Positions 8,426-25,013 of a stretch of 25,013 bases of DNA are shown one piece after another. The position numbers and the translations under genes are program-made. Numbering within the stretch: position 1 is the stretch's first letter; each line of letters begins with the position of its first letter. The notes below the pieces were generated by a model. That model was not told where the DNA came from and made no database searches. It saw only the letters and a list, made by a program, of their open reading frames with translations. Source of the stretch: a virus (taxonomy: Duplodnaviria; Heunggongvirae; Uroviricota; Caudoviricetes); the IMG/VR virus record IMGVR_UViG_3300045988_007239, positions 1 through 25,013 of that record. One strand, written 5' to 3'.

Positions 8426-8439
8426 TTCAATGACTCCGG

Positions 8440-8646: not shown

Positions 8647-8714
8647 ATCAATGACTCCGTACGCAATTAAATTATTACCAATTTAACCACATATGATTTA
8701 TTTATCGTAGATAG

Positions 8715-8751
8715 TTGACATTTAACGCATAAATTATTACCTTTTGGGTAA
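8715..8751 (+). promoter_or_regulatory. promoter-operator module driving the tRNA insert
   Basis: TTGACA (8715-8720) followed by perfect TTACC-ttttg-GGTAA (8737-8751); the stretch acgcataaattattacc nearly duplicates the pL-like promoter at 19351-19367. Confidence 0.45.
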
Positions 8752-9073
8752 CCAAAGAGTTCATTCCGGTTACTAACCTGACTGGCTTGTCGTTAAATTG
8801 AACAGGTGGAGTGAGCTTTTATTTTGAGCAGTACGGCGTATGGCACATGCGCCGATAGCGGTCTGGATACGTTTAAGGGGCACCCTCCCTTGCTCGGGCA
8901 AACGAACCAGGTAGCCGGAATGTGCAAGTCGAGCGGTTTTATTCCGCGCACGGGGATTCACCATCCCGGCGATTCGGTGTGACACCTCGGAAGAGACGAG
9001 GGTACAACGATGAGAGCATTTATGGAGCCGCGACAAAGTGTGGTGCCTTAACAGGCTAAGTGCTCTCAGCGTT

Positions 9074-9150
9074 GTGGCATTAGCTCAGTTGGACAGAGCA
9101 ACCGCCTTCTAAGCGGTTGGTCGCAGGTTCGAATCCTGCATGCCGCGCCA
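9074..9150 (+). tRNA. tRNA-Arg (anticodon UCU)
   Basis: 77-nt cloverleaf folded by hand: acceptor gtggcat/atgccgc (one G-U), D-arm gctc..gagc, anticodon stem accgc/gcggt with loop cuUCUaa, T-arm gcagg-ttcgaat-cctgc, encoded CCA end. Confidence 0.9.
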
Positions 9151-9193
9151 GAATCACGCCTAAGGACCGTGATGCCAGAAGTTCCATGGGCTT

Positions 9194-9235
9194 GGCGGTG
9201 ATGGTTTCCTTTGAAGGACTATCACCGCCCTTTTT
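9194..9235 (+). terminator. intrinsic terminator after tRNA
   Basis: 9-bp stem GGCGGTGAT/ATCACCGCC (9194-9202 / 9221-9229) followed by TTTTT. Confidence 0.6.
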
Positions 9236-9313
9236 ACAGCATGACGCCATTGCGATGACTTCATGCTGTAAACCCGTACAGCCACGGAAGGCATAACTCA
9301 TTGCTTCCAGTTC

Positions 9314-9336
9314 GCCCGGTTCGCCGGGCTTTTTTT
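9314..9336 (+). terminator. intrinsic terminator
   Basis: GCCCGG-ttcg-CCGGGC stem followed by 7 T; ends 11 nt before the ATG of the 118-aa ORF. Confidence 0.7.
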
Positions 9337-9347
9337 AAGGTGAGATT

Positions 9348-9704
9348 ATGAACGACCAGCAAATCGAAAAAGAAATCGTTGAGAAAGGCAAAACGGCACC
9401 GCGAGTTACGCCTCAATATATCGAAAGCATCATTCTTGAAGAGCATTTCTTTACTGCTTATGACGGCATTCGTGCCGCCAATATGGGCGTTGGCGATTCA
9501 TGGACAGCGCATAAATCTACAGACCTCCTGACTTTCTGCGTACTGGTGCTGAAGAATGGCTTCACCGTCACCGGAGAGAGTACCTGTGCAAGTCCGGAAA
9601 ATTTTGATGCAGAAATTGGTCGGAAGATTGCCCGGCAGAATGCTGTAAACAAAATCTGGATGCTTGAAGGTTACTTGCTGAAGCAGAAGTTAAGCGAGCA
9701 ATAA
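9348..9704 (+). CDS. conserved phage protein of unknown function (possibly N4 gp49 / Sf6 gp66-like family)
   Basis: 118-aa ORF with AAGGTGAG RBS, on the opposite strand to flanking terminase and portal genes; family assignment from memory only. Confidence 0.7.
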   Translation: MNDQQIEKEIVEKGKTAPRVTPQYIESIILEEHFFTAYDGIRAANMGVGDSWTAHKSTDLLTFCVLVLKNGFTVTGESTCASPENFDAEIGRKIARQNAVNKIWMLEGYLLKQKLSEQ

Positions 9705-9720
9705 CACCGTGACATGTCAC

Positions 9721-9751
9721 AAACAGCCAGCTCATAGGCTGGCTTTGTTTT
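9721..9751. terminator. bidirectional terminator between insert ORF and terL
   Basis: AGCCAGC-tcatag-GCTGGCT stem, A-rich before and T-rich after; located where + and - strand genes converge. Confidence 0.5.
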
Positions 9752-9794
9752 ATCCTCACCAGAGGATATCAGCAGCATTATCCCCTCCAGCGGA

Positions 9795-11270
9795 TTAAGC
9801 ATAGGGATCGTAATCTGTGATGGCCTTGCCTTGCTGGTTCTGCTGCCCGGGAATTCGCAGACGCTTCGACACAGGGAACGCAAACGTCAGCAGTAGCGCA
9901 TCGCCTTTACCAGGAGAACGCCCAAGCCGCTCCTTGATATCTTCCTTCGGTTCGATAACGATTTTACCGTCCACGCGAACTTTGTACTCTGCCGCCGACA
10001 GGTCGTCCGCTGTTTCCTGGTCATCCAGCATGCCGCCCAGCCTCAGCCATGTCTTGCATGAGTTGAACATCTCCCCACGCTTGTTGAGCATCTGCGGGTC
10101 AGTAGACGCGCCACCGAACGGAACAAGTTGCCATGTGCGCCCCCAACCGTCACCGATTGACTTCAGCCCGGTACCGTAACCGAAGTCGATGAACACCGCG
10201 TCAGCCTGATACTGGTCTTCAAAGTCAGCGATACGCTTTGCCATAATCAGATCGTCAGTGGTCTTGTTGCCGGTCCACAGCACCTTACTGTGCAGCCCCT
10301 GCCGCAGGTATATCACCGCGTCATCAACACCGGAGTATGCAGGGTCAACGCCGATTATCACCGGAGCATGTGCCACCTGCGCAGCAGTTACCACCCGTTT
10401 CATTGCCTCGTCAGTAAGACCGGTAGGGATAAACTGCAATTCAGATGCATCAGGGAATATGCCGCGCACACGGATTTTAACGAAGTCGCTGTCTTCCCCG
10501 TAGTCATCAACCCATTTCTGCAACTGCTGTTTGTTGGTACCTTCCACCGTCCGACTGTCAATCTGCGCAGTTTTCCAGCGGTGTTTATACTTGCGGAAAC
10601 ATTCACGGAAACGTCCGGTATTACGCGTCGGGTTTCCGAACGCCACCCAGATAATCTCAGTGTCTTCGTCCGTTAGCGCACCTTCGGCAACTTCCCACAC
10701 CAGATCCGCAATGTTCGACGCTTCATCAAACACCACGATGATGCGTTTGCGCTCGTTGTGTAGTCCGGCGAATGCCTCAGTGTTGTGCTCAGACCAGGGG
10801 ATTGCGTCAGCTCGCCACCGCTTGTCGTGTCCAGGATCATTGCTGTACATCGCGGTAGCGGTACAGGTAAACCAGTCTTTCGTGATGGCAAGGTTCGACC
10901 ACTTGATAATTTCCGGCCAGGTCTTCGTTCGTAGCTGGTTGTCGGTGTTGGCGGTCACCACGACCTTACAATCCTCGCAAGTGGACATGCCCCAGTTGAT
11001 CAGCATTGAGATGAATGCGGATTTACCAATACCGTGACCAGAAGCGCGTGCCAGCATAAGCGGCTGATAGCGCGTCTCTGGATTCTGCAGGTGATCACGT
11101 ATCTCTCGGAACGCATCAGCCTGCCACTGACGTGGGCCAGTAGCATGTGCCAGTTCAGTCCCCTCTTCCCCCCACGGGAACGCATAGAGGGCATAACCAA
11201 GCGGATCGTGAGTAAACCCTGCAATATCCTCGATCAACTGCTCTTCAGGAGATAACACTGTATCTGTCAC
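9795..11270 (-). CDS. terL: terminase large subunit
   Basis: 491 aa; Walker A (ASGHGIGKS), Walker B-like IIVVFDEAS, C-terminal nuclease-like region; start overlaps small-subunit stop. Confidence 0.9.
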   Translation of the reverse strand: MTDTVLSPEEQLIEDIAGFTHDPLGYALYAFPWGEEGTELAHATGPRQWQADAFREIRDHLQNPETRYQPLMLARASGHGIGKSAFISMLINWGMSTCEDCKVVVTANTDNQLRTKTWPEIIKWSNLAITKDWFTCTATAMYSNDPGHDKRWRADAIPWSEHNTEAFAGLHNERKRIIVVFDEASNIADLVWEVAEGALTDEDTEIIWVAFGNPTRNTGRFRECFRKYKHRWKTAQIDSRTVEGTNKQQLQKWVDDYGEDSDFVKIRVRGIFPDASELQFIPTGLTDEAMKRVVTAAQVAHAPVIIGVDPAYSGVDDAVIYLRQGLHSKVLWTGNKTTDDLIMAKRIADFEDQYQADAVFIDFGYGTGLKSIGDGWGRTWQLVPFGGASTDPQMLNKRGEMFNSCKTWLRLGGMLDDQETADDLSAAEYKVRVDGKIVIEPKEDIKERLGRSPGKGDALLLTFAFPVSKRLRIPGQQNQQGKAITDYDPYA

Positions 11271-11863
11271 TGATTACCATCCTGACGTTCTTTGAGTCGC
11301 TTCCTGGCTGCTGCTATGCGATCAGCAATTGTCACATTCACATTAACATCCAGGCGTTCTTTGAATGCGTTGACGTCGACGTGCTTACCAATCAGTTCGA
11401 GGTTCTTCACCTTGTCAGGCCATTTAATTTTTTTGAGGATTGTCTCTATCGAATCCTCGTTCATGTTCATGATGGTCGATGACAGATCAAAGCCGCTAAG
11501 CGTAGTGCGCCAGATTTTCGGCCACTCGCGGATTGGTTTAAGGCTCCCATCGTCGTTGAGGATGTCGATCACGTCCATCTGGTCGATCTCCACCAGGCGC
11601 ATGAGAACGTAATCAGCACTGACGCGCATTCGTTTGTTGCGCTCCTCCATCAACTCGGCAATCCGTTTCTGAATGCGTTCATCGCGCATCATGACACTGG
11701 CTTTAACTGCCGCTGTATTTGGGGAGAATCCTGCGTTAATCGCTGCCTGAGTCTGGTTTTCAGGCGTTTTGATGTATGACTGGCAATAAGCCTCCTGCAT
11801 TGCAGTTAGTGGCTTAAATTGCGTTGATTTGCGTTTATAGGTTTTAGGTTCAGCAGGCATCAT
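11267..11863 (-). CDS. terS: terminase small subunit
   Basis: Directly upstream of and overlapping terL. Start set at the internal ATG-ATG (11863) with GGTGG RBS, because the 26 codons above it in the track ORF contain an operator palindrome. Confidence 0.75.
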   Translation of the reverse strand: MMPAEPKTYKRKSTQFKPLTAMQEAYCQSYIKTPENQTQAAINAGFSPNTAAVKASVMMRDERIQKRIAELMEERNKRMRVSADYVLMRLVEIDQMDVIDILNDDGSLKPIREWPKIWRTTLSGFDLSSTIMNMNEDSIETILKKIKWPDKVKNLELIGKHVDVNAFKERLDVNVNVTIADRIAAARKRLKERQDGNQ

Positions 11864-11880
11864 AACCACCGTGGTAATAG

Positions 11881-11895
11881 TTACCGTTGTGGTAA
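11881..11895. promoter_or_regulatory. operator-type palindrome upstream of terS
   Basis: Perfect TTACC-gttgt-GGTAA, flanked by GGTAAtag repeats, 18 nt upstream of the proposed terS start. Confidence 0.5.
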
Positions 11896-11981
11896 TAGTA
11901 CCATGCAAAATAAAGCCGCCATAGTTGGCGGCAGTATTCAAAACCCATCAAATTCATCATGCATAATCTACTCGTGACATT

Positions 11982-12320
11982 TCACACTATTAATTTCGTT
12001 TCATGCCAGCCTTTAGTCACCCAGCATTGCGAGTCACCATTACAAGGGCATGAATTAACTGGAACTCTCTCGCCGCACTTACCGCAACGTTTTCTGCTGA
12101 TCGATTTTATACGCCCGCGCACGCGTGCATCATCCTGGCGGATCAGTAACGCTATATACTCACCAAATTCGTAAGGCGCACGCCCGGGGCGACGCGTGGC
12201 ACAGTTACGCTCCAGCATTTCAATTTCCTGAGCATCAAGCACAATTTCCAGCTTACGCACACCAGATGCAGCTTGTCTTGCTCTCTGAGCGGCTTTGCGC
12301 TCTGCTGCTGATTTAGCCAT
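11982..12320 (-). CDS. hypothetical protein with basic N-terminus and C-terminal Cys-rich zinc-ribbon-like motif
   Basis: 112-aa ORF; C-x2-C ... C-x-C-x5-C cluster near C-terminus; lies just upstream of terS. Confidence 0.6.
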   Translation of the reverse strand: MAKSAAERKAAQRARQAASGVRKLEIVLDAQEIEMLERNCATRRPGRAPYEFGEYIALLIRQDDARVRGRIKSISRKRCGKCGERVPVNSCPCNGDSQCWVTKGWHETKLIV

Positions 12321-12666
12321 TCTGATTTTCCTGCATCATGAGAAATACAATCATGGCGGCTCGGAGTGGATTATTCGCATGAAAGCAAATGTTCTCGGTA
12401 TTAAAAACAGCTGACCACTCACCGCGAGATTGGTGGCAGGTTAGACTGATTTTATTATCAACAATAATAGGCCATGCATCCGATGGATTATTGCAGTAGT
12501 CAGGTAAAGGGTTTAATGGCTCAAAAATTGTATCAGTATTTCCGTAATACCATTTGTTGGTGTTATTCCCTGATGTTTCCGGTTTACACGCCCAAAGGCC
12601 TTTAAAAATTATGTCTCCTACCATTCTGTTAATTTCAAAATCACTTAACTGTGAATAGTCCATCAT
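12313..12666 (-). CDS. hypothetical phage protein
   Basis: Start placed at ATG-ATG (12666/12663) with GGAGG RBS and ATGA overlap with upstream gene stop; the track's longer N-terminus (to 12738) lacks an RBS. Confidence 0.6.
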
Positions 12667-13388
12667 TTCGCCTCCTGCGGCGGTTCTGGTAGCGGCATCC
12701 AGTGTGACGGTTTCCACGACGCACCAGGAATTATCCACCCATCATTAGCGTCAGGATGACCCGGGATGTAAGTCGCCCATTTCATTCGCCAGTCACCTTT
12801 CCTGTCAAACTCCACGGCAACAAGAACGGCTGTTTTGGTATCCGGCATTCGCTCACTACAGCTTATCCAACCATCCGGAGTTACCGGAGAGTTGCCAGCC
12901 AGTCTACGCAAAACAGCCTTAACAGCCTCAATACGGTCATCATCGCAATTTTCCAGCGTATCTATGCGGTCGAGCATGATGATGGCGTTATCAATATCAG
13001 GATTGCCGGTCCACTCATTACCGCGATTGGATTCGGCAGCCTGGTTGCGCATAATCTCAGGCGTAAGCTCTTTGTAAGCATAAGCAAGAGGCTCTGATGC
13101 ATTATCCGGCACAACCGACGCAGGCGCGGCAGCATAAACAGGAATAACGTCCGGTTGCTCTTTATTGCTTTCATCCGTTAAAGCCCAGAATAATTTCCCG
13201 GCCGGATGTTTGAAAATATAAGCAACTGGATCTGCTTCCAGCGATGCCAGTGCAATTTCCAGAACAGTAATATCCATCTTATATGTGCGGATGATGTCAT
13301 GGTCGATTGTGCCCGGTATGCACAGTCTCTGTGCTTCAATAGTCTCCTCTGCGTGAGCTATTAACTGCTCTCTGGTAAAAGTCGTCAT
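12663..13388 (-). CDS. DUF551-domain phage protein (Ea22-like middle motif)
   Basis: 241 aa; C-terminal W-x-S-x-SE-x-P ... HWMPLPEPP pattern typical of DUF551; shares YAA-x-PASVVP motif with the ORF at 14506-14841; ATGA-coupled to the HNH gene. Confidence 0.7.
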
Positions 13389-13750
13389 GCCGTAGCCCCT
13401 TCTTGATATTTTTCAAACCAGAACACAACCGGGTCAGATTTCATTTCAACCAATCCCATACGAACCAGCGCTTTGCCTTTCCCGGACGCAAGGAATTCAC
13501 GACGACCATCACTGATAATTCGCCGATAATCTTCCAGGCTGCTGCAATGCTTGTGCAGATTGCATGGGTGGCATGCCGGAACCATGTTGGATATATCGTC
13601 ACGTTCCTGGTGAAGCATATTTCCAGAAAAACGAATGACCGGTTTTACATGGTCTGCATGCCACTTTTCGCCAAGTTCACAGCCACAATAAGCACAGCGA
13701 CCACCGAACTTCATGCGCAGTTCTGCGCGTTGTTTTTTCGTCAGTGCCAT
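13385..13750 (-). CDS. HNH endonuclease
   Basis: CAYCG ... HADHVKPV ... [13 protein letters not shown] motifs; start set at internal ATG (13750) with AGGAAAG RBS; lies upstream of the terminase genes. Confidence 0.8.
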
Positions 13751-13751
13751 A

Positions 13752-14163
13752 TCAGCTTTCCTTATACGGATTAATTTTATTGTGCAGTGTGTTGAACGAC
13801 GCCCATACCACGTCGTTATACAATTCAATAACTGGCTCAATTATTTTCCCGATTGCCCAGACAAAAATTAGCGGGGATATCGGTGTCATCAACACGATAA
13901 ACAGAATGAGAAACAAAAATTCTGTCGCTCTACTTTTTCGCGGATATTCTTTTCTGAATAATGTAGGCACATCACTCTCCTTTAGTGCGCAAGTGGTTTT
14001 TCCAGCGGTTTTGTGCTGCGCTTCTGTTTCGCCAGACACCGTAAAAACGAATAGAGGAACACCCCCTAAAACCCAGATATCTATAGTAAATAACAAGCCG
14101 ATTTGAGATACGGATACGCTGCCTGGGCTTTGCTATCAGCATCTTTGCCTTACGGTTTTTCAT
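13752..14163 (-). CDS. small basic membrane protein, paralog C (apparent frame change between two frames)
   Basis: ATG at 14163 encodes MKNRKAK like paralog B; the VLGGVPLFVFTV segment that matches paralog B lies in the other frame (track ORF 13752-14096, TTG start), which also carries a second hydrophobic segment. Confidence 0.35.
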
Positions 14164-14339
14164 CGCACTGCGTACCCCTTCTCTCGTCTGTTCCGCGACG
14201 CGGTGGGTTTATAGTTAAATGCGAATACCACCCTACCAAACATGCCGATCACCGCACGTTTGTGATTGCTGATTGGTAGCTTCTCGTATCCCGTCGAACG
14301 CGATAAAAGAAGTAATTTTGCTTTACGGTTTTTCATCAT
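14160..14339 (-). CDS. small basic protein with hydrophobic core, paralog B (59 aa)
   Basis: Hand-translated: MMKNRKAKLLLL...VIGMFGRVVFAF...; AGGAGA RBS; ATGA overlaps with paralogs A and C; just under the 60-aa track cutoff. Confidence 0.45.
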   Translation of the reverse strand: MMKNRKAKLLLLSRSTGYEKLPISNHKRAVIGMFGRVVFAFNYKPTASRNRREKGYAVR

Positions 14340-14506
14340 TTTGCTCTCCTGCGTTTCTTTGCTTCGCGTCGTGCAGCAGCAATACCGGTATGGCGCTTTG
14401 GTGCCGGGATGATGCTGTCAGCCATCAGGGCATGTGGCTTTGCAATTAGCGCAGAAGCCCAAAAACGAGTCGGGTATGGTAATAAACCGATAAACGCTAC
14501 ACGCAT
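14336..14506 (-). CDS. small basic protein, paralog A (56 aa)
   Basis: Hand-translated: MRVAFIGLLPYPTRFWASALIA...AKKRRRAK; strong AAAGGAGGTG RBS; TAATG overlap with upstream ORF; below track cutoff. Confidence 0.45.
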   Translation of the reverse strand: MRVAFIGLLPYPTRFWASALIAKPHALMADSIIPAPKRHTGIAAARREAKKRRRAK

Positions 14507-15004
14507 TACGCACCTCCTTTGGCGTCAATATTTACAGCCTGGCAAGCCTCGTTGAGTACCCAGTCAACCGCGTCTTTCCATGCTCCGGTTTCGACTGGCG
14601 GATTCTCACACTTTACCTGTTCATAGAAACGCATTGCTTTAACTAGTCCTTCCGGCACTACCGACGCTGGCGGGGCAGCATAAAGCTCATGTATTCCATC
14701 AGGTAGCGAGTGACCTACATACTCACTGAACCCATCAACACACATGCATCCATCTTCAACAATGCATGACGCTACTGGCAAAGCCACCTCCCGTGCCTCC
14801 AGTTCTTCTGCCCACTCCCGAAGCCCCTTCAATCTCACCATTACGAGCTATCAGATCGCGACACAGTCTTTCGTTTCCATCCAGCAACGCCAGCACAACC
14901 TCCGGCGTAGCCGCAGCATGAAAAGCCTGTAGGTTCTGCCACGTCGTATCCCCCTTCGCGGCCTCTGCCACCTCGCGCAGTGCCTGATAGTTAATTTCGC
15001 TCAC
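14506..15004 (-). pseudogene. Ea22/Ead-like gene split across two frames
   Basis: 82-aa ORF (MSEINYQALRE...VVLALLD, Ea22-like N-terminus) ends in an out-of-frame-looking tail; the overlapping 111-aa ORF continues with coiled-coil and the YAAPPASVVP motif. Confidence 0.4.
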
Positions 15005-15308
15005 TGGCTGCCTCCTTTGCTGGGCTTTCTAACTTCTGAGTGGTTGTATCAAACTCAAACAACTTAACCACGTCATCAAACAGGACATAATCGCCATCAG
15101 AATCTTCAGTCATGTCAGCGCCACAATCCTGACCGAACGAGTCACAACCATCCATATCAAGTTCGTATCGCTTGAGTTTTGCGATATTTGATAAATTCAG
15201 CGCCAGTACAGCAAGGTCATAAACCTCATCAGCGGTATACCCGGCACCATGCCCATACATTTCAATACGGGATATGATTTCTTCTACACGTTGTTTTGTG
15301 ATCGTCAT
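14991..15308 (-). CDS. hypothetical acidic protein
   Basis: 105-aa ORF, closely packed in the nin-like region. Confidence 0.6.
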   Translation of the reverse strand: MTITKQRVEEIISRIEMYGHGAGYTADEVYDLAVLALNLSNIAKLKRYELDMDGCDSFGQDCGADMTEDSDGDYVLFDDVVKLFEFDTTTQKLESPAKEAASERN

Positions 15309-15310
15309 TT

Positions 15311-15829
15311 TTACTCACCTTCCTGTTCTTCCAGAAAAATACGCATAGCCTCAAGCATCTCTTCGGTGTCATACGGTGACAACTTGTCACGCAGGATGTG
15401 TTCAATGCTGTTAATGAACTTGCGGATTGCTTTGCGTTCAATTTCAGCAAGGAATGCGTCGGTGGCCGGGGTTTTGATTTCGTTAAGTGCATCACTGAAT
15501 CCACCTCTCTCCATACCTAGCTCTGCTTCGTAATCGGCATCGAATGCAGCGTCTTTGCAGAACTTCTTCAGCTTTGCATTCTCCGCTGCCAGCGCCGAAA
15601 ACTTCTCGTGTGCCAACTTAACAGCCGAATCAGCCTGCTTAATTGACTCAATCGCTTTCTGCTGGTCTTCGGCCAGCGCATTAGCACGCGCCAGTTGCAC
15701 TTCCAGTTGCGTTGCCAAATCGCTGATCAGCTTTGCCACACTACGCATATCAACGGCACCACATTCTGCTTTCAGTTCCGAAGCCATCTCATGCCCGGCG
15801 GCAACTAACCCTTTGATATTACTTTCCAT
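15311..15829 (-). CDS. hypothetical coiled-coil protein
   Basis: 172 aa, Ala/Glu/Lys-rich heptad-like sequence; GAGGG RBS. Confidence 0.65.
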   Translation of the reverse strand: MESNIKGLVAAGHEMASELKAECGAVDMRSVAKLISDLATQLEVQLARANALAEDQQKAIESIKQADSAVKLAHEKFSALAAENAKLKKFCKDAAFDADYEAELGMERGGFSDALNEIKTPATDAFLAEIERKAIRKFINSIEHILRDKLSPYDTEEMLEAMRIFLEEQEGE

Positions 15830-15890
15830 CTTTACCCTCGCTTATCCACATAACTTATTGATTACATTGATAACTAAAAAGATCGTCGAT

Positions 15891-16235
15891 TCAGAACTCT
15901 TCGATGTTCCAGCCACCACCTGCTTTCTTTGGCTTAACCGTTACCCCGATGATTCGGAACGGATACTGATCTGCGGCGACTTTGGTTTTCACCCTGGCGT
16001 CGTCGGTCCAGAAACCTTTCACTTCGTGCAGTTCCATCTCGCCGGTGGCGAGCATCACAGCAAAATCGGGCGTATAGAACGTGTTGTCAGCTAACCGCAG
16101 CTTGATACCCTCGAATCGATACCAGGCGATTTCCCCTGCACGTTTACGCAGCTCAAGGTGCTGGCAATACGCAGATTCTGTTTTGTTCATCTGGCCTGTT
16201 TTGAGTCGACCAAGAGCCTGTATCTGTTTTCTCAT
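15891..16235 (-). CDS. DUF1064-like protein (putative nuclease/resolvase-like)
   Basis: 114 aa; Y-x-x-DF ... E-x-KG ... D ... K pattern resembles DUF1064; an operator palindrome overlaps its RBS and start. Confidence 0.6.
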   Translation of the reverse strand: MRKQIQALGRLKTGQMNKTESAYCQHLELRKRAGEIAWYRFEGIKLRLADNTFYTPDFAVMLATGEMELHEVKGFWTDDARVKTKVAADQYPFRIIGVTVKPKKAGGGWNIEEF

Positions 16236-16238
16236 GAT

Positions 16239-16313
16239 TTACCTCTAAGGTAATTAAAAACCACATAAGACACGAAATCAATAGAGTTTAGAATATTTTA
16301 TTACCTGATAGGT
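16239..16313. promoter_or_regulatory. two operator palindromes flanking a candidate promoter for the nin-like genes
   Basis: Perfect TTACC-tctaa-GGTAA (16239-16253) and TTACC-tgata-GGTAA (16299-16313); a TTGATT -35-like element lies between them on the - strand. Confidence 0.5.
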
Positions 16314-16352
16314 AATTGTTGAGGCGTAAAAAAATGCGCTATCGCGCTGGTA

Positions 16353-17129
16353 TTACTTGATAAATCCTGCCGCCTTTCCCCGCCTGTATTCCTCCATCAG
16401 CCACTGCGCCGGTGTTATTCCCCCAAGGGTGGCGGCGTTAGGCATACACCCGAAACTTCGCCCTGGTGGATGGTAAACGTCTCTCCCTGTGTCCGGAGGC
16501 GTACTCATGGGCTCTGGCTTTGCCTGTATGCTGATCACCGGATCCGGTATCTGCTGTCCGGAAGCCACCTTTTTCGCCCAATCATCGAGCAGCCTGCGCG
16601 CGTGTTTCTCAACCTCAATCTCGCTAAGCTGGCGCTGATACATTGCACGGCGGGTATCACATACGACCCAGTACATAACCGGATGTCGCCACGGGAATCT
16701 TTCGGGACCACCAGGATATAAACTTTTTTCCTTGCTGTACCGGTGAAACTCCGCCATCACATCGTCAATGGTGACGCCAAGAACCATCTTGCTGTCTTTA
16801 CACCACTTGATAAATTGCCCTGGCGACGGCCAGAACGGAGATTCACTGGCGCGGGCGTGGCGCATACCAGCGTTAACCTGTTCCATTGTAGTGATCCCAT
16901 TCTCCAGAAACGCAAGCATCCATTGCTTACGGAATTCATTAAGTTTGTTCTGCTCCCTTATGGTCGAAACGCTTGCAGGAAATGCAGCCTGTAACTGGAC
17001 AAATAGTTCATTGAAAATTCTAGCGACCTGCTCCTTTTTGCCATTGCTGTCACGCCGCTCTTCATGCACAGCAACACCATGCTCACGTAAGCGATCGTAC
17101 TCATTGAGAAGTTCTGGAGTTGATTTCAT
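16353..17129 (-). CDS. replication protein, lambda P-like helicase loader
   Basis: 258 aa; FPAS ... [14 protein letters not shown] ... PSPGQF matches lambda P family signature as I remember it. Confidence 0.8.
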
Positions 17130-17931: not shown

Positions 17932-18124
17932 AGGTTTCCCCTCTTGCACTCTTTAGTGCACAAGCAAATTCATTACGATGGCGGTTGGCGCTATTCATTG
18001 CACATTCAACACATGTTCCGTTCAGAACATACCTTTCAGAGAGATGGCCGTGACGGCACCGCTTTCCTGTGAAATAGCGATTTAACCCGGCTTTTGCGGC
18101 CTCCATTCTGGTTACTATCTTCAA
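17912..18124 (-). CDS. small zinc-finger protein in the cII position
   Basis: C-x-H-x-H ... C-x2-C cluster; start uncertain (TTG at 18124 with GGGGG RBS, or ATG at 18106); overlaps start of the initiator gene. Confidence 0.4.
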
Positions 18125-18203
18125 TTTTTCCGCCCCCTTTTTGTTATTGATATTGGCTATTTTGCACAATTGGAAAATTTGATCAACCAGATTTGGTTTT
18201 TTA

Positions 18204-18218
18204 TTACCTTTGAGGTAC
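18204..18218. promoter_or_regulatory. imperfect operator palindrome
   Basis: TTACC-tttga-GGTAc, 9 of 10 specified bases; just downstream of the cro-like gene terminator. Confidence 0.3.
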
Positions 18219-18224
18219 GAATAG

Positions 18225-18251
18225 ATATGAAAAGACCGCCGGATGGCGGTC
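18225..18251 (-). terminator. intrinsic terminator after cro-like gene (tR1-like position)
   Basis: GACCGCC-N4-GGCGGTC stem followed on the - strand by TTTTCAT. Confidence 0.55.
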
Positions 18252-18273
18252 TACAGAGGGTTGTGGCTGGATA

Positions 18274-18504
18274 TCATGAGTAGAAGAAGTATGCCAGTTC
18301 TGCTTTTGAGCGCAGCCATTGTCTTGTTTTACAGGCTTTAAAAAGCCCATTCATCAATACCTTACCTGGCATTTTGCGCTTACCTGTTAAGTGAGTCTGG
18401 ATATAGTGACTCGTCGTTCCGGCTTCCTGTGCGAAGGCTTCACGCTCATCCGGAGTAAGTGCAAGCCAGTGCTTTTTGAAATCGAAATGTCCGTTATCGC
18501 TCAT
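18274..18504 (-). CDS. Cro/YdaS-like HTH regulator
   Basis: 76-aa ORF divergent from the repressor gene; helix-turn-helix-like segment; classical cro position. Confidence 0.65.
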   Translation of the reverse strand: MSDNGHFDFKKHWLALTPDEREAFAQEAGTTSHYIQTHLTGKRKMPGKVLMNGLFKACKTRQWLRSKAELAYFFYS

Positions 18505-18540
18505 AGCTATTGCCTGATATTTATTTCAGATAATAAATAT

Positions 18541-18603
18541 TCACCCATAAGGTAACAAAAATCAAGGATAGTTACCTATGAGGTGCATTTACCTGTTGGG
18601 TAA
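18541..18603. promoter_or_regulatory. immunity-region operator cluster (OR-like) with divergent promoters
   Basis: Three sites: tcACC-cataa-GGTAA (18541-18555), TTACC-tatga-GGTgc (18572-18586), perfect TTACC-tgttg-GGTAA (18589-18603); between divergent cro-like and repressor genes. Confidence 0.55.
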
Positions 18604-18658
18604 TATTGCTTTAAATTGAATCATCTACTGATTCATATATGAGGCGATTTTCCAGAAA

Positions 18659-19243
18659 ATGAAAAGTATCCAGGACGTCCGCAGGCAAAATCTCAACGAC
18701 TTGATCGACCGTGAATTCAATGGTGTTCAGACGCGGATGGCAGAAAAACTTGGAACTCAGGCAAATCTGGTAAACCGCTGGGCTCTTGGCAAGAAGGTTA
18801 TCGGCGACCAGGTTGCACGAAAAATTGAAGCTGCCGCCAATAAACCCCGTAACTGGCTTGATATCGATCGCTCGCTTTCTCAGGAAGGTTTTCAGCCTGT
18901 CGGCCCGAGCGATATAGGTCAGCTGGCGGCTCACAACCTGGAACGCTGGATGAGCGAAAGCCGCGACCTTTCAACGCAGGGAAAACTACACCGCGCATCC
19001 GGCGTCGCCCAGGTGACAATCAGCCGCCTGTTAAACAATGAGGTCAGCGTTTCCATTTCCACCCTGGAGAATGTTGCATCCGCATTCGGGCGTCACGGCT
19101 ATGAATTACTGATTCACCCGCACGACCCTGCGACCATCAACTATGATCGCTCGCGCTACGCATTGTTACCCGAAACCGAGAAAGCAAAGATCGAAAGTTA
19201 CATTGAATTTGTCATCAACCAGAACGAAAAAAACAAACAATAA
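18659..19243 (+). CDS. phage repressor with two HTH (XRE-type) domains, no LexA-like peptidase domain
   Basis: 194 aa; two HTH-like segments (LGTQANLVNRWALGK and SGVAQVTISRLLNNEV); no Ser/Lys peptidase motif region; followed by a strong terminator. Confidence 0.75.
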   Translation: MKSIQDVRRQNLNDLIDREFNGVQTRMAEKLGTQANLVNRWALGKKVIGDQVARKIEAAANKPRNWLDIDRSLSQEGFQPVGPSDIGQLAAHNLERWMSESRDLSTQGKLHRASGVAQVTISRLLNNEVSVSISTLENVASAFGRHGYELLIHPHDPATINYDRSRYALLPETEKAKIESYIEFVINQNEKNKQ

Positions 19244-19263
19244 AATCATATTTTTCAGTAAGT

Positions 19264-19288
19264 AAGCCGCCTTCTGGCGGCTTTTTTA
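19264..19288 (+). terminator. intrinsic terminator after repressor gene
   Basis: GCCGCC-ttct-GGCGGC stem followed by TTTTTT. Confidence 0.7.
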
Positions 19289-19300
19289 TTGCCTATTCGA

Positions 19301-19377
19301 TTACCTAATGGGTAATTTTTTTAACTCATATCTATTGACATCAAACCAGATACGCATAATTATTACCTCAACGGTAA
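19301..19377 (+). promoter_or_regulatory. pL-like promoter with two operators
   Basis: Perfect TTACC-taatg-GGTAA (19301-19315); TTGACA (19335-19340), 17-nt spacer, AATTAT; perfect TTACC-tcaac-GGTAA (19363-19377) at the predicted transcription start. Confidence 0.6.
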
Positions 19378-19396
19378 CAGACCGAGGTAACAAGTT

Positions 19397-19549
19397 ATGC
19401 AGTGGAAAATCATCAACGGTTGGTACTGCGTTACTGCATGCGGATTCATGAGCTGGAAGTTCCGCACCTTACAGGAAGGCATTAAGTGGGCTTTCGTCAG
19501 CAAAGAAGCTCGCGATGTGGCCAACGATAACGAGATATGGGAGGGCTGA
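19397..19549 (+). CDS. small hydrophobic protein (50 aa), first gene of early-left operon
   Basis: Hand-translated MQWKIINGWYCVTACGFMSW...; GAGGT RBS 8 nt upstream; stop 2 nt before the next gene; below track cutoff. Confidence 0.35.
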   Translation: MQWKIINGWYCVTACGFMSWKFRTLQEGIKWAFVSKEARDVANDNEIWEG

Positions 19550-19551
19550 TA

Positions 19552-19851
19552 ATGAACGTTAATCAGCAGAAAAATCTTCAAAAAATCATGCTGGCATTCG
19601 ACAAGGACTACCGCCTGTCAGAACAGCTATATGACCGACAAGTTGAACTGATCGAGAGCATCCGGCTTCATCAACTGGCCTCAACTTTTGACGCTGTAAC
19701 AGGCAAAGGAGTTCGCCAGGAAGTGCTGGAGGCAGCTAAAGACAGCCCTGAGTTCGAAGAACTTATGGATGCCTACCGGCGCGAGGCAATAGCAATTATC
19801 GCCCGCTGGGATCTGGCGGATCGGATTGATGGGCAGAGGGAAGCGGCATGA
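19552..19851 (+). CDS. hypothetical protein (99 aa)
   Basis: Start set at ATG 19552 with GGGAGGG RBS, not the track's 19537; stop overlaps the exonuclease gene start. Confidence 0.6.
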   Translation: MNVNQQKNLQKIMLAFDKDYRLSEQLYDRQVELIESIRLHQLASTFDAVTGKGVRQEVLEAAKDSPEFEELMDAYRREAIAIIARWDLADRIDGQREAA

Positions 19852-20669
19852 AACCGGGAATTTATTTCGACATCAGCAACGAAGACTACCACGCCGGTGA
19901 CGGCGTGAGTAAGTCGCAACTGGACATGGTTGCCAAGAATCCGGCGCTTCTTAAATGGGTTCAGGCAGCACCAGAAGACGAAGAGAAAAAGTCTGCACTG
20001 GATATGGGAACCGCATTGCACTGTCTGCTTCTGGAGCCTGGAGAATTCGACAAACGCTTCATTGTTTCACCGAAGTTCGATCGTCGGACGAAACAAGGTA
20101 AAGCTGACGAAGAAGCATTTCTTCGTGATGTAGCGGATATGGGGATTACGGTACTTGATGCCGAGCAGTGGCGGAAACTGGAGCTGATGCGTGATAGCGC
20201 AATGGCTCACCCGGCGGCACGCTGGATGCTGGAAGCACCTGGTTACTGCGAAGCATCAATGTACTGGAATGATGAAGAGACTGGTGAGTTGTGCCGCATT
20301 CGTCCAGACAAATGGCTGAACGAGCACAACGTGATCGTCGACGTGAAAAAGGTTGCAGATATGGATCGTTTTGCACGCCACATCGAGGAATTCCGCTACC
20401 ACGTGCAGGACGCAATGTACCGCGAAGGAGCGATGAGGGTTACTGGTCAGTCGCATGGTTTTTTCTTTCTTGCCGTGAGCGAAAGCATTGATTGTGGTCG
20501 GTATCCGGTACGCGTGTTCGAGCTGGATGCGCCGGATGTCGATGCCGGGCACGCTCTGTTCCGCCGGGATCTGAATACCTATCACGAATGCCGCATCAAC
20601 GATGAATGGGGCGGCGTGGAAATTATTAAACGCCCTGACTGGGCACGTAAACAGGATATGTACGTATGA
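19848..20669 (+). CDS. recE: RecE-like exonuclease (exodeoxyribonuclease VIII catalytic domain only)
   Basis: 273 aa; GIYFDISNEDYHAG ... SKSQLD ... GTALHCLLLEPGEFDKRF ... CRIRPDK ... DVKK closely resembles the RecE C-terminal nuclease domain as I remember it. Confidence 0.8.
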   Translation: MKPGIYFDISNEDYHAGDGVSKSQLDMVAKNPALLKWVQAAPEDEEKKSALDMGTALHCLLLEPGEFDKRFIVSPKFDRRTKQGKADEEAFLRDVADMGITVLDAEQWRKLELMRDSAMAHPAARWMLEAPGYCEASMYWNDEETGELCRIRPDKWLNEHNVIVDVKKVADMDRFARHIEEFRYHVQDAMYREGAMRVTGQSHGFFFLAVSESIDCGRYPVRVFELDAPDVDAGHALFRRDLNTYHECRINDEWGGVEIIKRPDWARKQDMYV

Positions 20670-21547
20670 GCAATGATATCGCAATCACATCACAACCAGG
20701 CGCAACTGTAGGTACTGCTGCGGCAATCTTCAGCCCGGAGGGCATGAATCAACTGGTGCGTTTCGCGGAGTTGATGTCACAAAGCAAAGCGACTGTACCG
20801 AAACATCTTGAAGGCAAACCTGCCGATTGTCTGGCGGTGACCATGCAGGCGGCACAGTGGGGAATGAACCCTTTCGCCGTGGCGCAGAAAACGCATGTGG
20901 TAAACGGAACGTTAGGCTACGAAGCACAGTTGGTAAACGCGGTCGTATCCTCTTCCAGCCTGCTAGCGACACGCCTGAATTATCGCTGGAGCGGTGACTG
21001 GTCGAATGTTAACGGCAAAACAGATAAATCACCGAATCTGACGGTAACTGTGTCAGCAGTTCTTAAAGGAGAAGCAGAACCCCGTGAGCTTACCATCAGT
21101 ATGGCGCAAGCCGGAGTGCGTAACTCTCCATTGTGGGAACAGGATCCGCGCCAGCAGCTTGCCTATCTTTGCACGAAACGATGGGCTCGCCTGCACGCTC
21201 CTGATGTACTTCTCGGTGTTTACACCCCTGACGAATTACAGGAAACGGCACCGCGCGTTGAGCGAGACATTACTCCGCAAACGACTACTGCTGCGGCAAT
21301 GAACAGTCTGATCAACGCTAAACCAGTGAAAAAGCCTGATGAGCAAACGCGTAAAGCGGATAGCCGTGATCCAGAAGAAATGCTGATGGCCTTTACCAGC
21401 GCAGCGATGAATTACAGCACTGTCTCCGAACTGGATAAGGCTTACAAATACATTGCACAAAAACTTTCAGATGATGACGAACTGCTGGCAAAAGCCACCG
21501 ACGTTTACAGCGTTCGTCGGGAAGAATTAAACGAAACATCTATGTAA
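20666..21547 (+). CDS. single-strand annealing protein, RecT/Red-beta (Bet) family
   Basis: 293 aa; QWGMNPF ... ERDITP and C-terminal W-x-RL pattern resemble lambda Bet; coupled to the exonuclease gene. Confidence 0.75.
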   Translation: MSNDIAITSQPGATVGTAAAIFSPEGMNQLVRFAELMSQSKATVPKHLEGKPADCLAVTMQAAQWGMNPFAVAQKTHVVNGTLGYEAQLVNAVVSSSSLLATRLNYRWSGDWSNVNGKTDKSPNLTVTVSAVLKGEAEPRELTISMAQAGVRNSPLWEQDPRQQLAYLCTKRWARLHAPDVLLGVYTPDELQETAPRVERDITPQTTTAAAMNSLINAKPVKKPDEQTRKADSRDPEEMLMAFTSAAMNYSTVSELDKAYKYIAQKLSDDDELLAKATDVYSVRREELNETSM

Positions 21548-21596
21548 CCACCACCGCGGCGCCACGCGCGCCGCACTGCAACCAAGAGAGGTATTT

Positions 21597-21845
21597 ATGA
21601 AAGGTGCATTAGGTAAGAAGGAACTCCTGGCGGTGGTGCCACTGTCATGGAGCACTATCGACCGTATGGAGCGCGCAGGGGAATTTCCTAAACGCTGGTA
21701 TATCACCGATAAACGCTGCGCATGGAACCGTGATGAAGTTGAGCGTTGGCTTGATGAACGTCAGGCAGCAAGCCCGGCAGAGTTCCAGGGTAAAAAACCT
21801 CCTGTTCAGCAACGTGTATATCGTCCTGTGAGCAACGCGGCATGA
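21597..21845 (+). CDS. AlpA-family DNA-binding protein (excisionase/regulator-like)
   Basis: 82 aa; S-x-STI-x-R ... G-x-FP ... W-x-x-x-EV-x-x-WL pattern typical of AlpA/Vis-type proteins. Confidence 0.7.
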   Translation: MKGALGKKELLAVVPLSWSTIDRMERAGEFPKRWYITDKRCAWNRDEVERWLDERQAASPAEFQGKKPPVQQRVYRPVSNAA

Positions 21846-21954
21846 GTGTGCTGCTAAGGCACTGGAGCAAATGGTCAGGATGGTACTTATTCCTGGCCTC
21901 TGTTTCAGCATGGCTTTATCTGCTGGCATTAATTTTCAGAGAGGGTTGGATTAA

Positions 21955-22254
21955 GTGAGAAAGTTAAGCCGACTTGAAAAATATCACATGAACAAGGTTT
22001 CAATGCGCAGCCCTTCAAAGGTTGTTGCCGTTACTCCTGCGGCGATAGAGATCGAAAAACGCGCGATTGAAAGAGAGAAAAAAGGGCAGTTCCGCATTGC
22101 CGCCCACCTTTGGCTTCAGTGTATGGATGTTGCTTCTGGTGATGTTGAACGTGCAAGGATCGCGGTTCGCAGGGACCAATGTATCACAAAAGGTAACGGC
22201 CTTCGCCGTGGCGACTATAGCGGCATAGGATGTTGTGGGGTGGTTTATGACTAA
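21955..22254 (+). CDS. PerC/ANR-like small regulator
   Basis: 99-aa ORF (GTG start per track); RIAAHLW ... ERARIAVRRDQC resembles the PerC-family motif; assignment from memory. Confidence 0.45.
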   Translation: MRKLSRLEKYHMNKVSMRSPSKVVAVTPAAIEIEKRAIEREKKGQFRIAAHLWLQCMDVASGDVERARIAVRRDQCITKGNGLRRGDYSGIGCCGVVYD

Positions 22255-22897
22255 GAAATACACACTAATCTATGCAGATCCACCCTGGGTATACCGGGAC
22301 AAAGCCGCAGATGGTAATCGCGGTGCCGGTTTTAAATATCCGGTTATGAGTGTGCTGGATATCTGCCGCCTTCCTGTGTGGGATTTGGCCGATGAAAACT
22401 GTCTGTTGGCCATGTGGTGGGTGCCAACACAACCACTCGAAGCACTAAAAGTTGTTGAAGCCTGGGGATTCCGTCTGATGACGATGAAGGGCTTCACGTG
22501 GATAAAATGTGGTAGTCGACAACCAGATAAACTGGTTATGGGTATGGGACACATGACTCGCGCCAATAGTGAAGATTGCCTGTTTGCGGTAAAGGGAAAA
22601 CTACCTACGCGCATTAATGCAGGGATCGTTCAGTCATTTACCGCACCGCGGCTTGAGCATTCAAGAAAGCCAGATATCGTTCGTGAAAAACTTGTGCAAT
22701 TATTAGGCGATGTTTCTCGCATTGAACTGTTCGCCCGCCAGACGTCTCATGGCTTCGATGTTTGGGGTAATCAGTGCGAAGACCCGGCAGTGCAACTACA
22801 CCCTGGATACGCGTTGGATATCGGCGGATTAACAAATGCATTCAGCAATGCTCCGCTGTCACCAACAGACAACCAGGGGCGGGAGCGTGCAGCATGA
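22247..22897 (+). CDS. MT-A70 family N6-adenine DNA methyltransferase
   Basis: IYADPPW motif near N-terminus; start taken at ATG 22247 (track uses GTG 22235). Confidence 0.8.
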
Positions 22898-23553
22898 ACC
22901 TATATCAACGCATCAATGGCGCTGACTGGTGCAATATCTTCGTCGTCGGCGATCTGCATGGGTGCTACACGCTGCTGATGAACGAACTCGACAAAGTTTC
23001 ATTCGACCCGGCGCGCGATTTGCTTATTTCCGTTGGTGACCTTGTTGACCGCGGCGCTGAAAACGTCGAATGCCTGGATTTGATTACTATGCCGTGGTTC
23101 CGAGCTGTTCGTGGCAACCATGAGCAGATGATGCTGGATGCACTGGTCAACGGCGGAAGTTTCGGACATTGGATGTCAAACGGCGGTGGATGGTGGCACC
23201 AACTTGATTCTGAGCAGGATGTGCAACTCAAATACCTTCTGCCAAAGGTTACCAACCTCCCGATGATTATCGAACTGGTTACCGGCAATAAGAAGGTCGT
23301 CATCTGCCACGCAGACTACCCGCACAACGAATACGCATTCGATAAGCCAGTACCGGAAGAAATGGTGATATGGAATCGTGAGCGGGTTAGCGACGCGCAG
23401 GACGGTATTGTCTCGGAGATAACCGGTGCCGATTTGTTCATCTTCGGTCATACGCCAGCACATCACCCACTGGTGTATGCAAACCAAATGTACATCGACA
23501 CCGGCGCAGTGTTCTGCGGAAATCTGACGCTTACCAAAGTCCAGGAAGGATAG
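22894..23553 (+). CDS. Ser/Thr protein phosphatase (lambda PPase-like metallophosphatase)
   Basis: GDLHG, GDLVDRG and GNHE motifs; start at ATG 22894, overlapping the methyltransferase stop (ATGA); the track's N-terminal extension is rejected. Confidence 0.85.
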
Positions 23554-23555
23554 AA

Positions 23556-24812
23556 TTATTTATTACTGTCTTCCATCCACTTCTCAAACTTCGACGGGGA
23601 GAACGGAATCAGATCCGTATGCTCCCCGTTAATCCAGGAATCAATCATATCGGCCCACTGCTGCAACATGTAGGCGCGCTGTCTGGCGTATTCCGCTTTG
23701 TTATATACGGCGCGCACACCTTTCTGCTCGTGTGCCAGAGCCTTTTCAATCCAGTCTGAAGGATAACCAGCCTCATGCAACAATGTACTGGCTGTACGGC
23801 GCATATCATGTACAGTGAAATCCTGAATATGCTCACCATCTTCATTTATTATTTTCACCGTTCTGTCGATCAGAGAGTTCAGCGCGGCATTAGATAATGG
23901 CTTCCGGAAATTGTAACGACCAGGAACCAGATATTCACTTCCACCAGCGCACATCTGCAACCCGACTAATATATCCTGTGCCTGTTTAGGCAGGTAAATA
24001 ACGTGCGCCCGACCTCCCTTCATGCGGTCTGAAGGAATTGTCCATGTCCATTTTTTAAAATCTATTTCATCCCACGTTGCATTGGTTAATTCTCCCTTAC
24101 GAACCATGGTGATAAGCACCAGCTTTAAAGCCATTTTCATAGTGCCCATAGCACCAATGGCATCCAGCGTGCGGAAGAACAGGCCAATTTCTTCTGGTGT
24201 CAGTGTTCGCTCTCGTGGTTTAAATATGGCGATAGACGAAGGTTTAATGTCAGCCGCAGGATTAAACAAACCATGACCACGGTCATTGGCGTGACGGTAT
24301 ACGCTGCTGATGATCTCCCTGGCCTGTACTGCTGTTGCCCGACCACCGCGTTCGACAATCCGGTCACACAAATCACGAACCATCGATGTGGTAATTTCAG
24401 CCATCATTTTGTTGCCAAGAACCGGAAGTATGTCACGGTCGATCACCGCCTGCTTCATTGCGCGGGTACTGTCAGCCAGGATGACGTGTTTCATATAACT
24501 GTCGGTATGTACCGCAAACGTCTCGGCACCACGAATCTTTTTAATACCGTCACGTTTAGCCGCAGCCGGTGACTGGCCTGCTTTAAGCAGCTTCTTTGCA
24601 GCAATCAGTTCTTCTCGCGCTTCTGCCAAGCTGATACCGTCACGCCCATACTGCCCGATTACCAGTGTTTCGCGGCGACCGTTGATACGGTAGTCATAGC
24701 GAAACGAGACCGTGCCTGACGTAAGCACAGCTACATACAGCCCGTCACGATCGGAGACCTTGTACAGTTTGTCCTGCGGCTTGAGGTTTTTTAATTTTGT
24801 ATCGGTAAGCAC
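23556..24812 (-). CDS. int: tyrosine integrase (P4-type)
   Basis: 418 aa; arm-binding-like N-terminus, catalytic-domain motifs (HDMRRT, C-terminal Tyr region); GTG start at 24812; convergent with the early-left operon. Confidence 0.9.
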   Translation of the reverse strand: MLTDTKLKNLKPQDKLYKVSDRDGLYVAVLTSGTVSFRYDYRINGRRETLVIGQYGRDGISLAEAREELIAAKKLLKAGQSPAAAKRDGIKKIRGAETFAVHTDSYMKHVILADSTRAMKQAVIDRDILPVLGNKMMAEITTSMVRDLCDRIVERGGRATAVQAREIISSVYRHANDRGHGLFNPAADIKPSSIAIFKPRERTLTPEEIGLFFRTLDAIGAMGTMKMALKLVLITMVRKGELTNATWDEIDFKKWTWTIPSDRMKGGRAHVIYLPKQAQDILVGLQMCAGGSEYLVPGRYNFRKPLSNAALNSLIDRTVKIINEDGEHIQDFTVHDMRRTASTLLHEAGYPSDWIEKALAHEQKGVRAVYNKAEYARQRAYMLQQWADMIDSWINGEHTDLIPFSPSKFEKWMEDSNK

Positions 24813-24835
24813 AATTCACCCGTATAGAAACCATT

Positions 24836-24876
24836 TTCATGACGGTATGAGAGTATACCTTTAAGGTAATACCGTC
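24836..24876. promoter_or_regulatory. long palindrome with embedded operator-like site in the integrase promoter region
   Basis: TGACGGTA ... TACCGTCA outer inverted repeat enclosing aTACC-tttaa-GGTAA (24855-24869), 25-65 nt upstream of the int start. Confidence 0.4.
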
Positions 24877-24934
24877 ACCTGTACCGCCGAAAAATATGGT
24901 GTAGAGTGAATAGAAATGAATACATAAAAACAAA

Positions 24935-24958: not shown

Positions 24959-25013
24959 AAATTAGTATCTGAATAGGAATGATTTGCTATGAGTTAGCTG
25001 TTAATCATTCCCA

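Follow-up and report, generated by a model that had tools for sequence, protein, structure and literature searches.

A palindrome dispersed over a phiV10-type phage genome is the probable operator of the immunity repressor Rep

Background

A close described counterpart of the system considered here is the Rep/Ant immunity system of phage SPC32H, reportedly described by Kim and Ryu in 2013 and by Kim et al. in 2016 and represented by the structures PDB 5D50 and 5D4Z. The tetrameric antirepressor in the 2016 work is said to take Rep off the DNA, and Rep is said not to be cleaved. We analyzed a 15-bp palindrome, TTACC-N5-GGTAA, that recurs across a 25,013-nt stretch of tailed phage DNA (IMG/VR record IMGVR_UViG_3300045988_007239, positions 1 to 25,013; hereafter the window) and is probably the operator of a repressor homologous to SPC32H Rep. 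An earlier inspection of the sequence (the original prediction) had proposed that the palindrome marks promoter regions in every module of the phage and that one regulator acts across these modules.

Single immunity repressors with sites all over the genome are established in other phages. Phage P1 C1 and mycobacteriophage L5 gp71 each act at at least 10 genome-wide sites and control many operons directly. Their operators are asymmetric and bound by monomers.

According to passages in papers that cite the SPC32H structure, including PMC9986798, SPC32H Rep recognizes palindromic DNA in tetrameric form and is a tight repressor of the lytic genes, and the tetramer of this homologue contains two DNA-binding pairs. 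A passage in PMC9986798 assigns DNA binding to the N-terminal domain of Rep, dimerisation to the middle domain, and tetramerisation and Ant binding to the C-terminal domain; another passage of this 2023 paper says that the structural mechanism of Rep repression 'has not been extensively characterized'. In phage vB_EcoP_ZX5 (ZX5), whose repressor is identical to the one encoded in the window, overexpression of Rep lowered endolysin mRNA by 99.99% and holin mRNA by 99.97% (PMC9782041). The same 2022 paper lists no operators.

Results and Discussion

Occurrence of the palindrome

The window is placed by megablast in the genus Uetakevirus (epsilon15/phiV10-like temperate podophages), with phages TL-2011b, HEMP4 and ZX5 as the closest matches at 96–98% identity. 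Within the epsilon15/phiV10 group it represents the phiV10 type, and its Rep is 42% identical to that of epsilon15.

An exact search of the 25 kb identified seven perfect copies of TTACC-N5-GGTAA, at 8737, 11881, 16239, 16301, 18589, 19301 and 19363. This is the number originally predicted, with one coordinate amended from 16299 to 16301. No perfect copy occurred in 100 dinucleotide-preserving shuffles, and a uniform-base model gives an expectation of about 0.024, in keeping with the earlier figure of about 0.02. Allowing up to one mismatch brings the count to 11 copies, compared with 0.38 expected from shuffles, and adds 11863, 18204, 18541 and 24855. The original set of near-perfect copies correctly included 18204, 18541 and 24855 but lacked 11863, and its remaining member, at 18572 (TTACCTATGAGGTGC), has two mismatches. 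The 18572 site is conserved as the middle one of three between the repressor and cro-like genes. The window contains 12 probable sites, spread over the genome, and the extended form of the operator is ATTACC-N5-GGTAAT.

As predicted from their placement at gene starts and in intergenic regions, 11 of 11 copies lie outside coding sequence, either between open reading frames (ORFs) or touching a start codon; the non-coding share of the window is about 8%, estimated by eye from the ORF list. The 8.7 kb of structural genes (1–8700) contain no palindrome at one mismatch or fewer, and two-mismatch matches there are at background level.

Given this distribution and the conservation described below, we consider it likely that TTACC-N5-GGTAA is the operator of the immunity repressor Rep and that it occurs in one or two copies at the promoter of each transcription unit. 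The proposal of one regulator touching promoter regions in every module is supported.

Rep as the probable binding partner

Rep is a 194-aa immunity repressor (18659–19243, plus strand), assigned by phmmer and by identity, with an N-terminal helix-turn-helix (HTH) DNA-binding domain followed by dimer and tetramer domains. It is a full-length homologue of SPC32H Rep (5D50_A; phmmer E-value 4e-42 over residues 1–190) and shares 100% identity with the repressors that phiV10, ZX5 and other phages encode. The aromatic pair at the tetramer interface is kept, as Tyr181/Phe184 in the window Rep and Phe187/Phe190 in SPC32H Rep. A Pfam scan matched Rep to HTH-type families only, with no Peptidase_S24 self-cleavage domain, and it has no strong relatives beyond SPC32H Rep and families of the HTH_3 type. 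The HTH_3 match covers residues 106–147, which fall within the region crystallised as the oligomerisation core of SPC32H Rep. The earlier description of this protein as a 'tandem HTH' is accordingly apt at the level of fold but misleading as to function, as the HTH_3 match lies in the oligomerisation core and the DNA-binding domain is N-terminal. Its choice as the best candidate binder is supported by these sequence comparisons.

In an alignment of four Rep types the proteins are only 42–45% identical overall, yet the recognition-helix motif of the HTH, NLVNRW, is invariant, and therefore one half-site is used by all Rep types. As the same helix and the same half-site are found in all four, we turned instead to distant relatives of the DNA-binding domain. 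A protein search with this domain alone returned fragments only. However, the cI protein of Pseudomonas phage PseuP_224 (10906–11820) has an N-terminal domain 39% identical to that of Rep, fused to a Peptidase_S24 domain. This lambdoid siphovirus, which has an annotated Q, carries TTACC-N4-GGTAA four times in 43 kb, only directly flanking cI. PseuP_224 thus resembles the window in having a homologous N-terminal DNA-binding domain and the half-sites TTACC/GGTAA, and differs from it in the N4 rather than N5 spacer, the Peptidase_S24 C-terminus, and the restriction of its four sites to the flanks of cI. It appears to provide an independent link between the DNA-binding domain of Rep and the half-site. 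In Moraxella phage Mcat9, whose repressor region encodes a further protein of this domain family, TTACY-N5-GGTT-like repeats precede the repressor gene.

Conservation and prior annotation

The motif occurs at homologous positions in phiV10, ZX5, epsilon15, SPC32H, Klebsiella phage BUCT711 and Enterobacter phage Tyrion, six genomes whose hosts are E. coli, Salmonella, Klebsiella and Enterobacter; the expectation that site positions would be conserved in related genomes is borne out. Copies with at most one mismatch number 15 in epsilon15, 14 in phiV10, 18 in SPC32H, 13 in BUCT711 and 15 in Tyrion, and range from 13 to 18 over all six genomes, with about 0.5 expected in each. Locus-by-locus alignments reveal fixed half-sites, while the N5 core and the flanks diverge. 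SPC32H shares with the window a full-length homologous repressor, the lack of an S24 cleavage domain and the operator map. The complete relatives also have sites at the antirepressor/tail-fibre region and at the lysis cassette.

The type phage epsilon15 has the same motif at the homologous loci, namely ahead of terS and of gp3, within the PL region and at the replication/nin boundary. Its GenBank record (AY150271.2) contains seven protein_bind features labelled 'repressor' with an identical motif: single sites precede terS, gp3 and the tailspike gene, a further three follow the repressor gene in the PL region, and the seventh separates the replication genes from the nin genes. Our search also recovers the lysis site, the integrase site and the three sites that separate rep from gp39, none of which the record lists. 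The public records of phiV10 and ZX5 have no such repressor-site annotation, and text searches of the literature for the motif or for Uetakevirus operators returned nothing relevant.

The finding is already known in kind, because the sites are annotated in epsilon15 and the repressor has been studied structurally in SPC32H; it was rediscovered correctly and independently, and the system is not new. The arrangement had been called unusual, which holds only against lambda: dispersed sites are conserved across the genus and are its norm. The fixed 62-bp operator pairs, the late-promoter box and the candidate regulator at the Q position described below may be unreported.

Operators and promoters of individual units

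Gene order was taken from the ORF list and the ZX5 annotation. The structural genes, portal, a small insert with tRNA-Arg, terL and terS (start at 11860) are on the minus strand, as are the nin-like region, the replication genes and a 76-aa cro-like gene. The plus strand carries rep (18659–19243) and then a PL-type operon (19397–23553), and the integrase gene runs from 24812 down to 23556 on the minus strand. The transcription units are bounded by terminators, and each has its own candidate promoter, which operators would overlap or flank. In a consensus scan, the best sigma-70 matches in the window are overlapped by operators.

Three operators between rep and the cro-like gene would control candidate PR. 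OR site 3 (18589–18603; exact search and alignment) is perfect and closest to rep, and OR site 2 (18572–18586; search and alignment) lies 17 bp from it, centre to centre. OR site 1 (18541–18555), with its single mismatch, is located inside the spacer and -35 of candidate PR, a match to the consensus pattern only (TTGTTA-17-TATTAT; 18530–18558, minus strand) that reads into the cro-like gene. The centre spacings of the three sites, at 18541, 18572 and 18589, are 31 and 17 bp; the position of site 1 is conserved in epsilon15, and the 17-bp pair is also present in epsilon15, SPC32H and BUCT711. The cro-like gene (18274–18504, minus strand), taken from the ORF list, is divergent from rep and matches phrog_35, 'transcriptional repressor' (E-value 5.6e-13). 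It is followed by a terminator (18233–18252, minus strand), which is annotated at the homologous place in phiV10.

The replication unit would have one operator at about -60. This site (18204–18218; one mismatch, found by the mismatch search) is about 60 bp upstream of a candidate promoter, TTGATC-17-(TGc)AAAATA (18158–18186, minus strand), in which GGTTGATC is invariant in five genomes. The right half-site of the operator, GGTAAT, is likewise invariant in five genomes; 17 bp downstream is the invariant TTGATC, followed after a further 17 bp by TGcAAAATA.

Candidate PL and the candidate promoter of the nin region (Pnin) would each be bracketed by two operators 62 bp apart, the first near -62 and the second beginning on the final base of the -10. 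PL follows a terminator after rep (19264–19283, plus strand; scan and phiV10 annotation). Its distal operator (19301–19315; exact search and alignment) is perfect and centred at about -62. PL itself, TTGACA-17-AATTAT (19335–19363, plus strand), is the top promoter match of the scan at 10 of 12 positions, and CTATTGACA is invariant in five genomes. The perfect proximal operator (19363–19377), 62 bp from the distal site, begins at the last base of the PL -10. A lone GAGGTAA half-site, which also serves as a ribosome-binding site, occurs at 19384–19390, 6 nt ahead of the first PL gene.

Pnin has the same geometry. It lies beyond a conserved terminator-like hairpin with a T-run after the replication gene (16328–16349, minus strand; annotated as a terminator in phiV10). 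A perfect distal operator (16301–16315; exact search and alignment) is followed by TTGATT-17-TTTAAT (16253–16281, minus strand; hexamers at 16281–16276 and 16258–16253), with CTATTGA invariant in five genomes, and by a perfect proximal operator (16239–16253) 62 bp from the distal one. The GAGGTAA of the proximal operator is also the ribosome-binding site of the DUF1064 gene, 3 nt before its start codon.

PL and Pnin therefore have a common module: an operator, 19 bp, CTATTGA (which includes the -35), 17 bp, and a -10 overlapping the second operator. Both operator pairs are 62 bp apart, centre to centre, in five of six genomes; in BUCT711 one is 62 and the other 63. The 62-bp pairs suggest that a Rep tetramer bridges the two operators.

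Between the last nin-region gene and terS there is a terminator (11915–11932, minus strand) that is annotated in both epsilon15 and phiV10. The putative terS promoter is an extended -10 element, TGgTACTAT (11895–11903, minus strand), within which the E. coli and Salmonella phages differ only at the base separating TG from TACTAT. Two adjoining operators right after this element would control it. Operator 1 (11881–11895) is perfect, and its homologue in epsilon15 (12–27) is annotated 'repressor'. Operator 2 (11863–11877), with one mismatch, is 18 bp from operator 1 and touches the terS start codon.

The perfect operator at 8737–8751 would serve two promoters, that of the head operon and a divergent moron promoter; the corresponding site in epsilon15 (2931–2947) is labelled 'repressor'. 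The candidate moron promoter, TTGACA-17-TACCTT (8715–8743, plus strand), has its -10 inside the operator and is directed toward tRNA-Arg(UCU) (9074–9150, plus strand). Its TTGAC and the exact 17-bp spacer are kept in epsilon15, BUCT711 and Tyrion, and the arrangement as a whole is conserved in four genomes. The core of the late (head) promoter, CATATGTGGTT-N5-TGgTAATAAT (8671–8695, minus strand), is invariant in four genomes, and its upstream flank diverges. The 8737 site had been assigned to the tRNA insert. This is correct for the moron promoter but incomplete, as the site belongs to a conserved divergent pair with the head operon. The stretch of about 320 nt between the candidate moron promoter and the tRNA (8752–9073, plus strand) is GC-rich, is somewhat more stably folded than shuffles (z-score -2.6) and has no Rfam match.

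The integrase gene probably has one upstream site (24855–24869; one mismatch), located 43 bp before the integrase start. We treat this site as ambiguous, as the palindrome is enclosed by a 9-bp inverted repeat, TGACGGTAT...ATACCGTCA (24840–24885, minus strand), which forms a larger hairpin with a predicted stability of -14.1 kcal/mol as RNA. The single mismatch of the palindrome (GGTAT) recurs in five genomes, and the 24840–24885 region is 90% conserved in five genomes. Inspection of the window sequence revealed no strong sigma-70 promoter for integrase and no clear promoter for rep.

We infer that Rep binds these sites in this phage. In the lysogen all of them would be filled by Rep, whose solved homologue is a tetramer, and every unit would be silenced directly; upon induction, the antirepressor would remove Rep.

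Late promoters and the position of Q

We aligned the regions upstream of the head, tail-fibre/tailspike and lysis genes (11 sequences from five genomes). Two blocks are invariant: the operator and, 30–45 bp downstream, CATATnnGGTT followed after 7 bp by a -10-like hexamer, in the forms GTAATAAT, GTAATAGAAT and GTATAAT. No -35 was found in these 11 sequences. The boxes are located at 8671–8695 (minus strand) in the window, at 3308, 20921 and 24739 in phiV10 (L002), at 2988, 19940 and 24751 in genome L003, and at 34505–34527 and 16900–16940 in genome L005. The pattern CATATNNGGTTWWW, which was defined post hoc, matches epsilon15 exactly three times, at the three late promoters, compared with 0.02 matches expected. 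The CATATnnGGTT box is not present at terS. This promoter structure implies a putative late factor, separate and dedicated to these promoters.

Scans against PHROGs and Pfam identified no Q family among the nin-region ORFs examined (all of at least 65 aa). The position that Q has in lambda, the last gene before the terminator and terS, is occupied by a 112-aa ORF (11982–12320, minus strand) that matches phrog_536, 'transcriptional regulator' (E-value 1.6e-54). Homologues, mostly annotated as hypothetical, occur in N15 (gp46), ZF40 and Yersinia and Vibrio phages. The protein has an N-terminal strand-helix-helix pattern and a cysteine-rich C-terminus (CGKCG..CPC..C); its AlphaFold model, with a mean predicted local distance difference test score of 61, is too poor to use. 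We regard this protein as a candidate late regulator.

The original prediction had suggested that the dispersed operators stand in for a missing Q-type cascade. The lack of a Q homologue among the ORFs scanned, the terminator-bounded units, and the confinement of operators to the flanks of cI in the Q-bearing PseuP_224 all favor this idea. However, the three late promoters with CATATnnGGTT-N7-(-10) speak against a complete replacement, as their timing probably needs another factor.

These features can be combined in a tentative model, which we hold to be possible but less likely than not, in which Rep is a genome-wide lock of fixed architecture, apparently undescribed. Early promoters would be bracketed by operators 62 bp (about six helical turns) apart, with one Rep tetramer bridging each pair and the promoter looped. 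The three late promoters would form a separate class, each guarded by an upstream Rep operator, and would be switched on by another factor, for which the 112-aa protein is a candidate. If this is true, the dispersed operators let a temperate podophage without Q keep independent late promoters silent.

Alternative explanations

Several points weigh against Rep operators as the explanation for all sites. All the promoter assignments are consensus pattern matches and thus putative. The operator of the late promoters is not within the core promoter but about 65–80 bp upstream of where transcription presumably starts. The epsilon15 record labels the stretch upstream of integrase as integrase and RNase III sites rather than as a repressor site. 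The quantitative PCR result in ZX5 leaves direct and indirect repression by Rep undistinguished, and the cro-like protein could bind the same sites as Rep.

Some of the dispersed sites could act as roadblocks to read-through at unit boundaries, like the 'stoperators' of mycobacteriophage L5, or as second anchors for the Rep tetramer. This could apply to the two terS operators, the site before integrase and the operators upstream of the late promoters. Both terS operators and several further sites come directly after terminators, the late-promoter sites are 30–45 bp upstream of the core elements and not over them, and the Rep homologue is a tetramer with two DNA-binding pairs, according to passages in the papers that cite its structure. 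However, at PL, Pnin, PR, the terS promoter and the moron promoter the operator shares bases with the -10, the spacer or the start region. A roadblock would in any case still be a bound Rep, which modifies the operator explanation and does not replace it. We therefore consider this alternative unlikely, though it has the best standing of the three.

Alternatively, the dispersed sites could serve mainly the 76-aa cro-like protein for shutdown during lytic growth, with Rep acting only at the rep/cro region. CI and Cro use common operators in lambda-type switches, and the phrog_35 match fits a repressor function. Against this, the half-site follows the DNA-binding domain of Rep into an unrelated Pseudomonas phage, the annotators of epsilon15 gave the sites to the repressor, and in ZX5 lysis-gene mRNA is abolished when Rep alone is overexpressed. 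The two readings are compatible with each other, but we judge a principally cro-like assignment improbable.

That the palindrome is something other than a protein operator, be it a hairpin or terminator in RNA, a junction left by recombination of mosaic modules, or a repeat due to chance or base composition, can practically be dismissed. Small hairpins can form and the PL and Pnin modules appear duplicated, but these hairpins have little stability (-4 to -6.4 kcal/mol) and no T-runs. The bases TTACC/GGTAA are themselves invariant, with no compensatory changes in the stem, nothing in the window except the tRNA matches Rfam, chance is excluded by the shuffles, and three sites from the repressor gene to the cro-like gene are a classic operator layout.

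Comparison with lambda, P1 and L5

Operator function for Rep places the window beside lambda CI/Cro in several respects. In both, three operators separate the repressor gene from a divergent cro or cro-like gene, further operators accompany a PL-like promoter on the far side of the repressor gene, and the sites for an HTH protein are palindromes of 15–17 bp. As the original prediction noted, the arrangement differs from the lambda layout, which is confined to OL and OR: the window has further operators at 8737, 11863, 11881, 16239, 16301, 18204 and 24855. In addition, its repressor has no Peptidase_S24 domain and no Q homologue was found among the ORFs scanned. Compared with P1 C1 and L5 gp71, the window sites are palindromic, the likely binder is a homologue of an HTH tetramer, and the proteins are unrelated. 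The Rep system works like that family and is not a member of it.

On this reading, a temperate phage can silence its whole genome with one repressor at every promoter, where lambda uses two operators and an antitermination cascade. This picture is already contained for the phage group in the epsilon15 annotation and the SPC32H Rep/Ant work, and what is gained in practice is modest: the phiV10/ZX5/TL-2011b type, which has no map of operators and promoters in its public records, now has one, and there are testable details of operator spacing and late-promoter structure. Phages of the phiV10 type serve as reporter phages for E. coli O157, and the type includes a prophage of an enterohemorrhagic E. 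coli outbreak strain; the regulatory map therefore has some applied use.

Other features

The antirepressor locus, which in the SPC32H type encodes a small Ant under LexA control, is outside the 25-kb window. In phiV10, which has an identical Rep, a LexA-box-like sequence, CTGT-N8-ACAG, occurs upstream of the Ant homologue at about 20820–20840, and in genome L003 at about 19838–19858, both outside the window. It adjoins a Rep operator and the tail-fibre late promoter.

The nin-like region contains an ORF for an HNH endonuclease (13385–13840, minus strand; phrog_2118, Pfam HNH). It is not at the same position in ZX5 and represents a mosaic difference.

The core ATTGAGTGGGAATGATT is the attP/att core reported for phiV10, epsilon15 and ZX5. 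A search of the window for this core gave no result, as the window ends within it and 25003–25013 has only TGGGAATGATT of ATTGAGTGGGAATGATT. The attachment site is probably the start or end of the source record.

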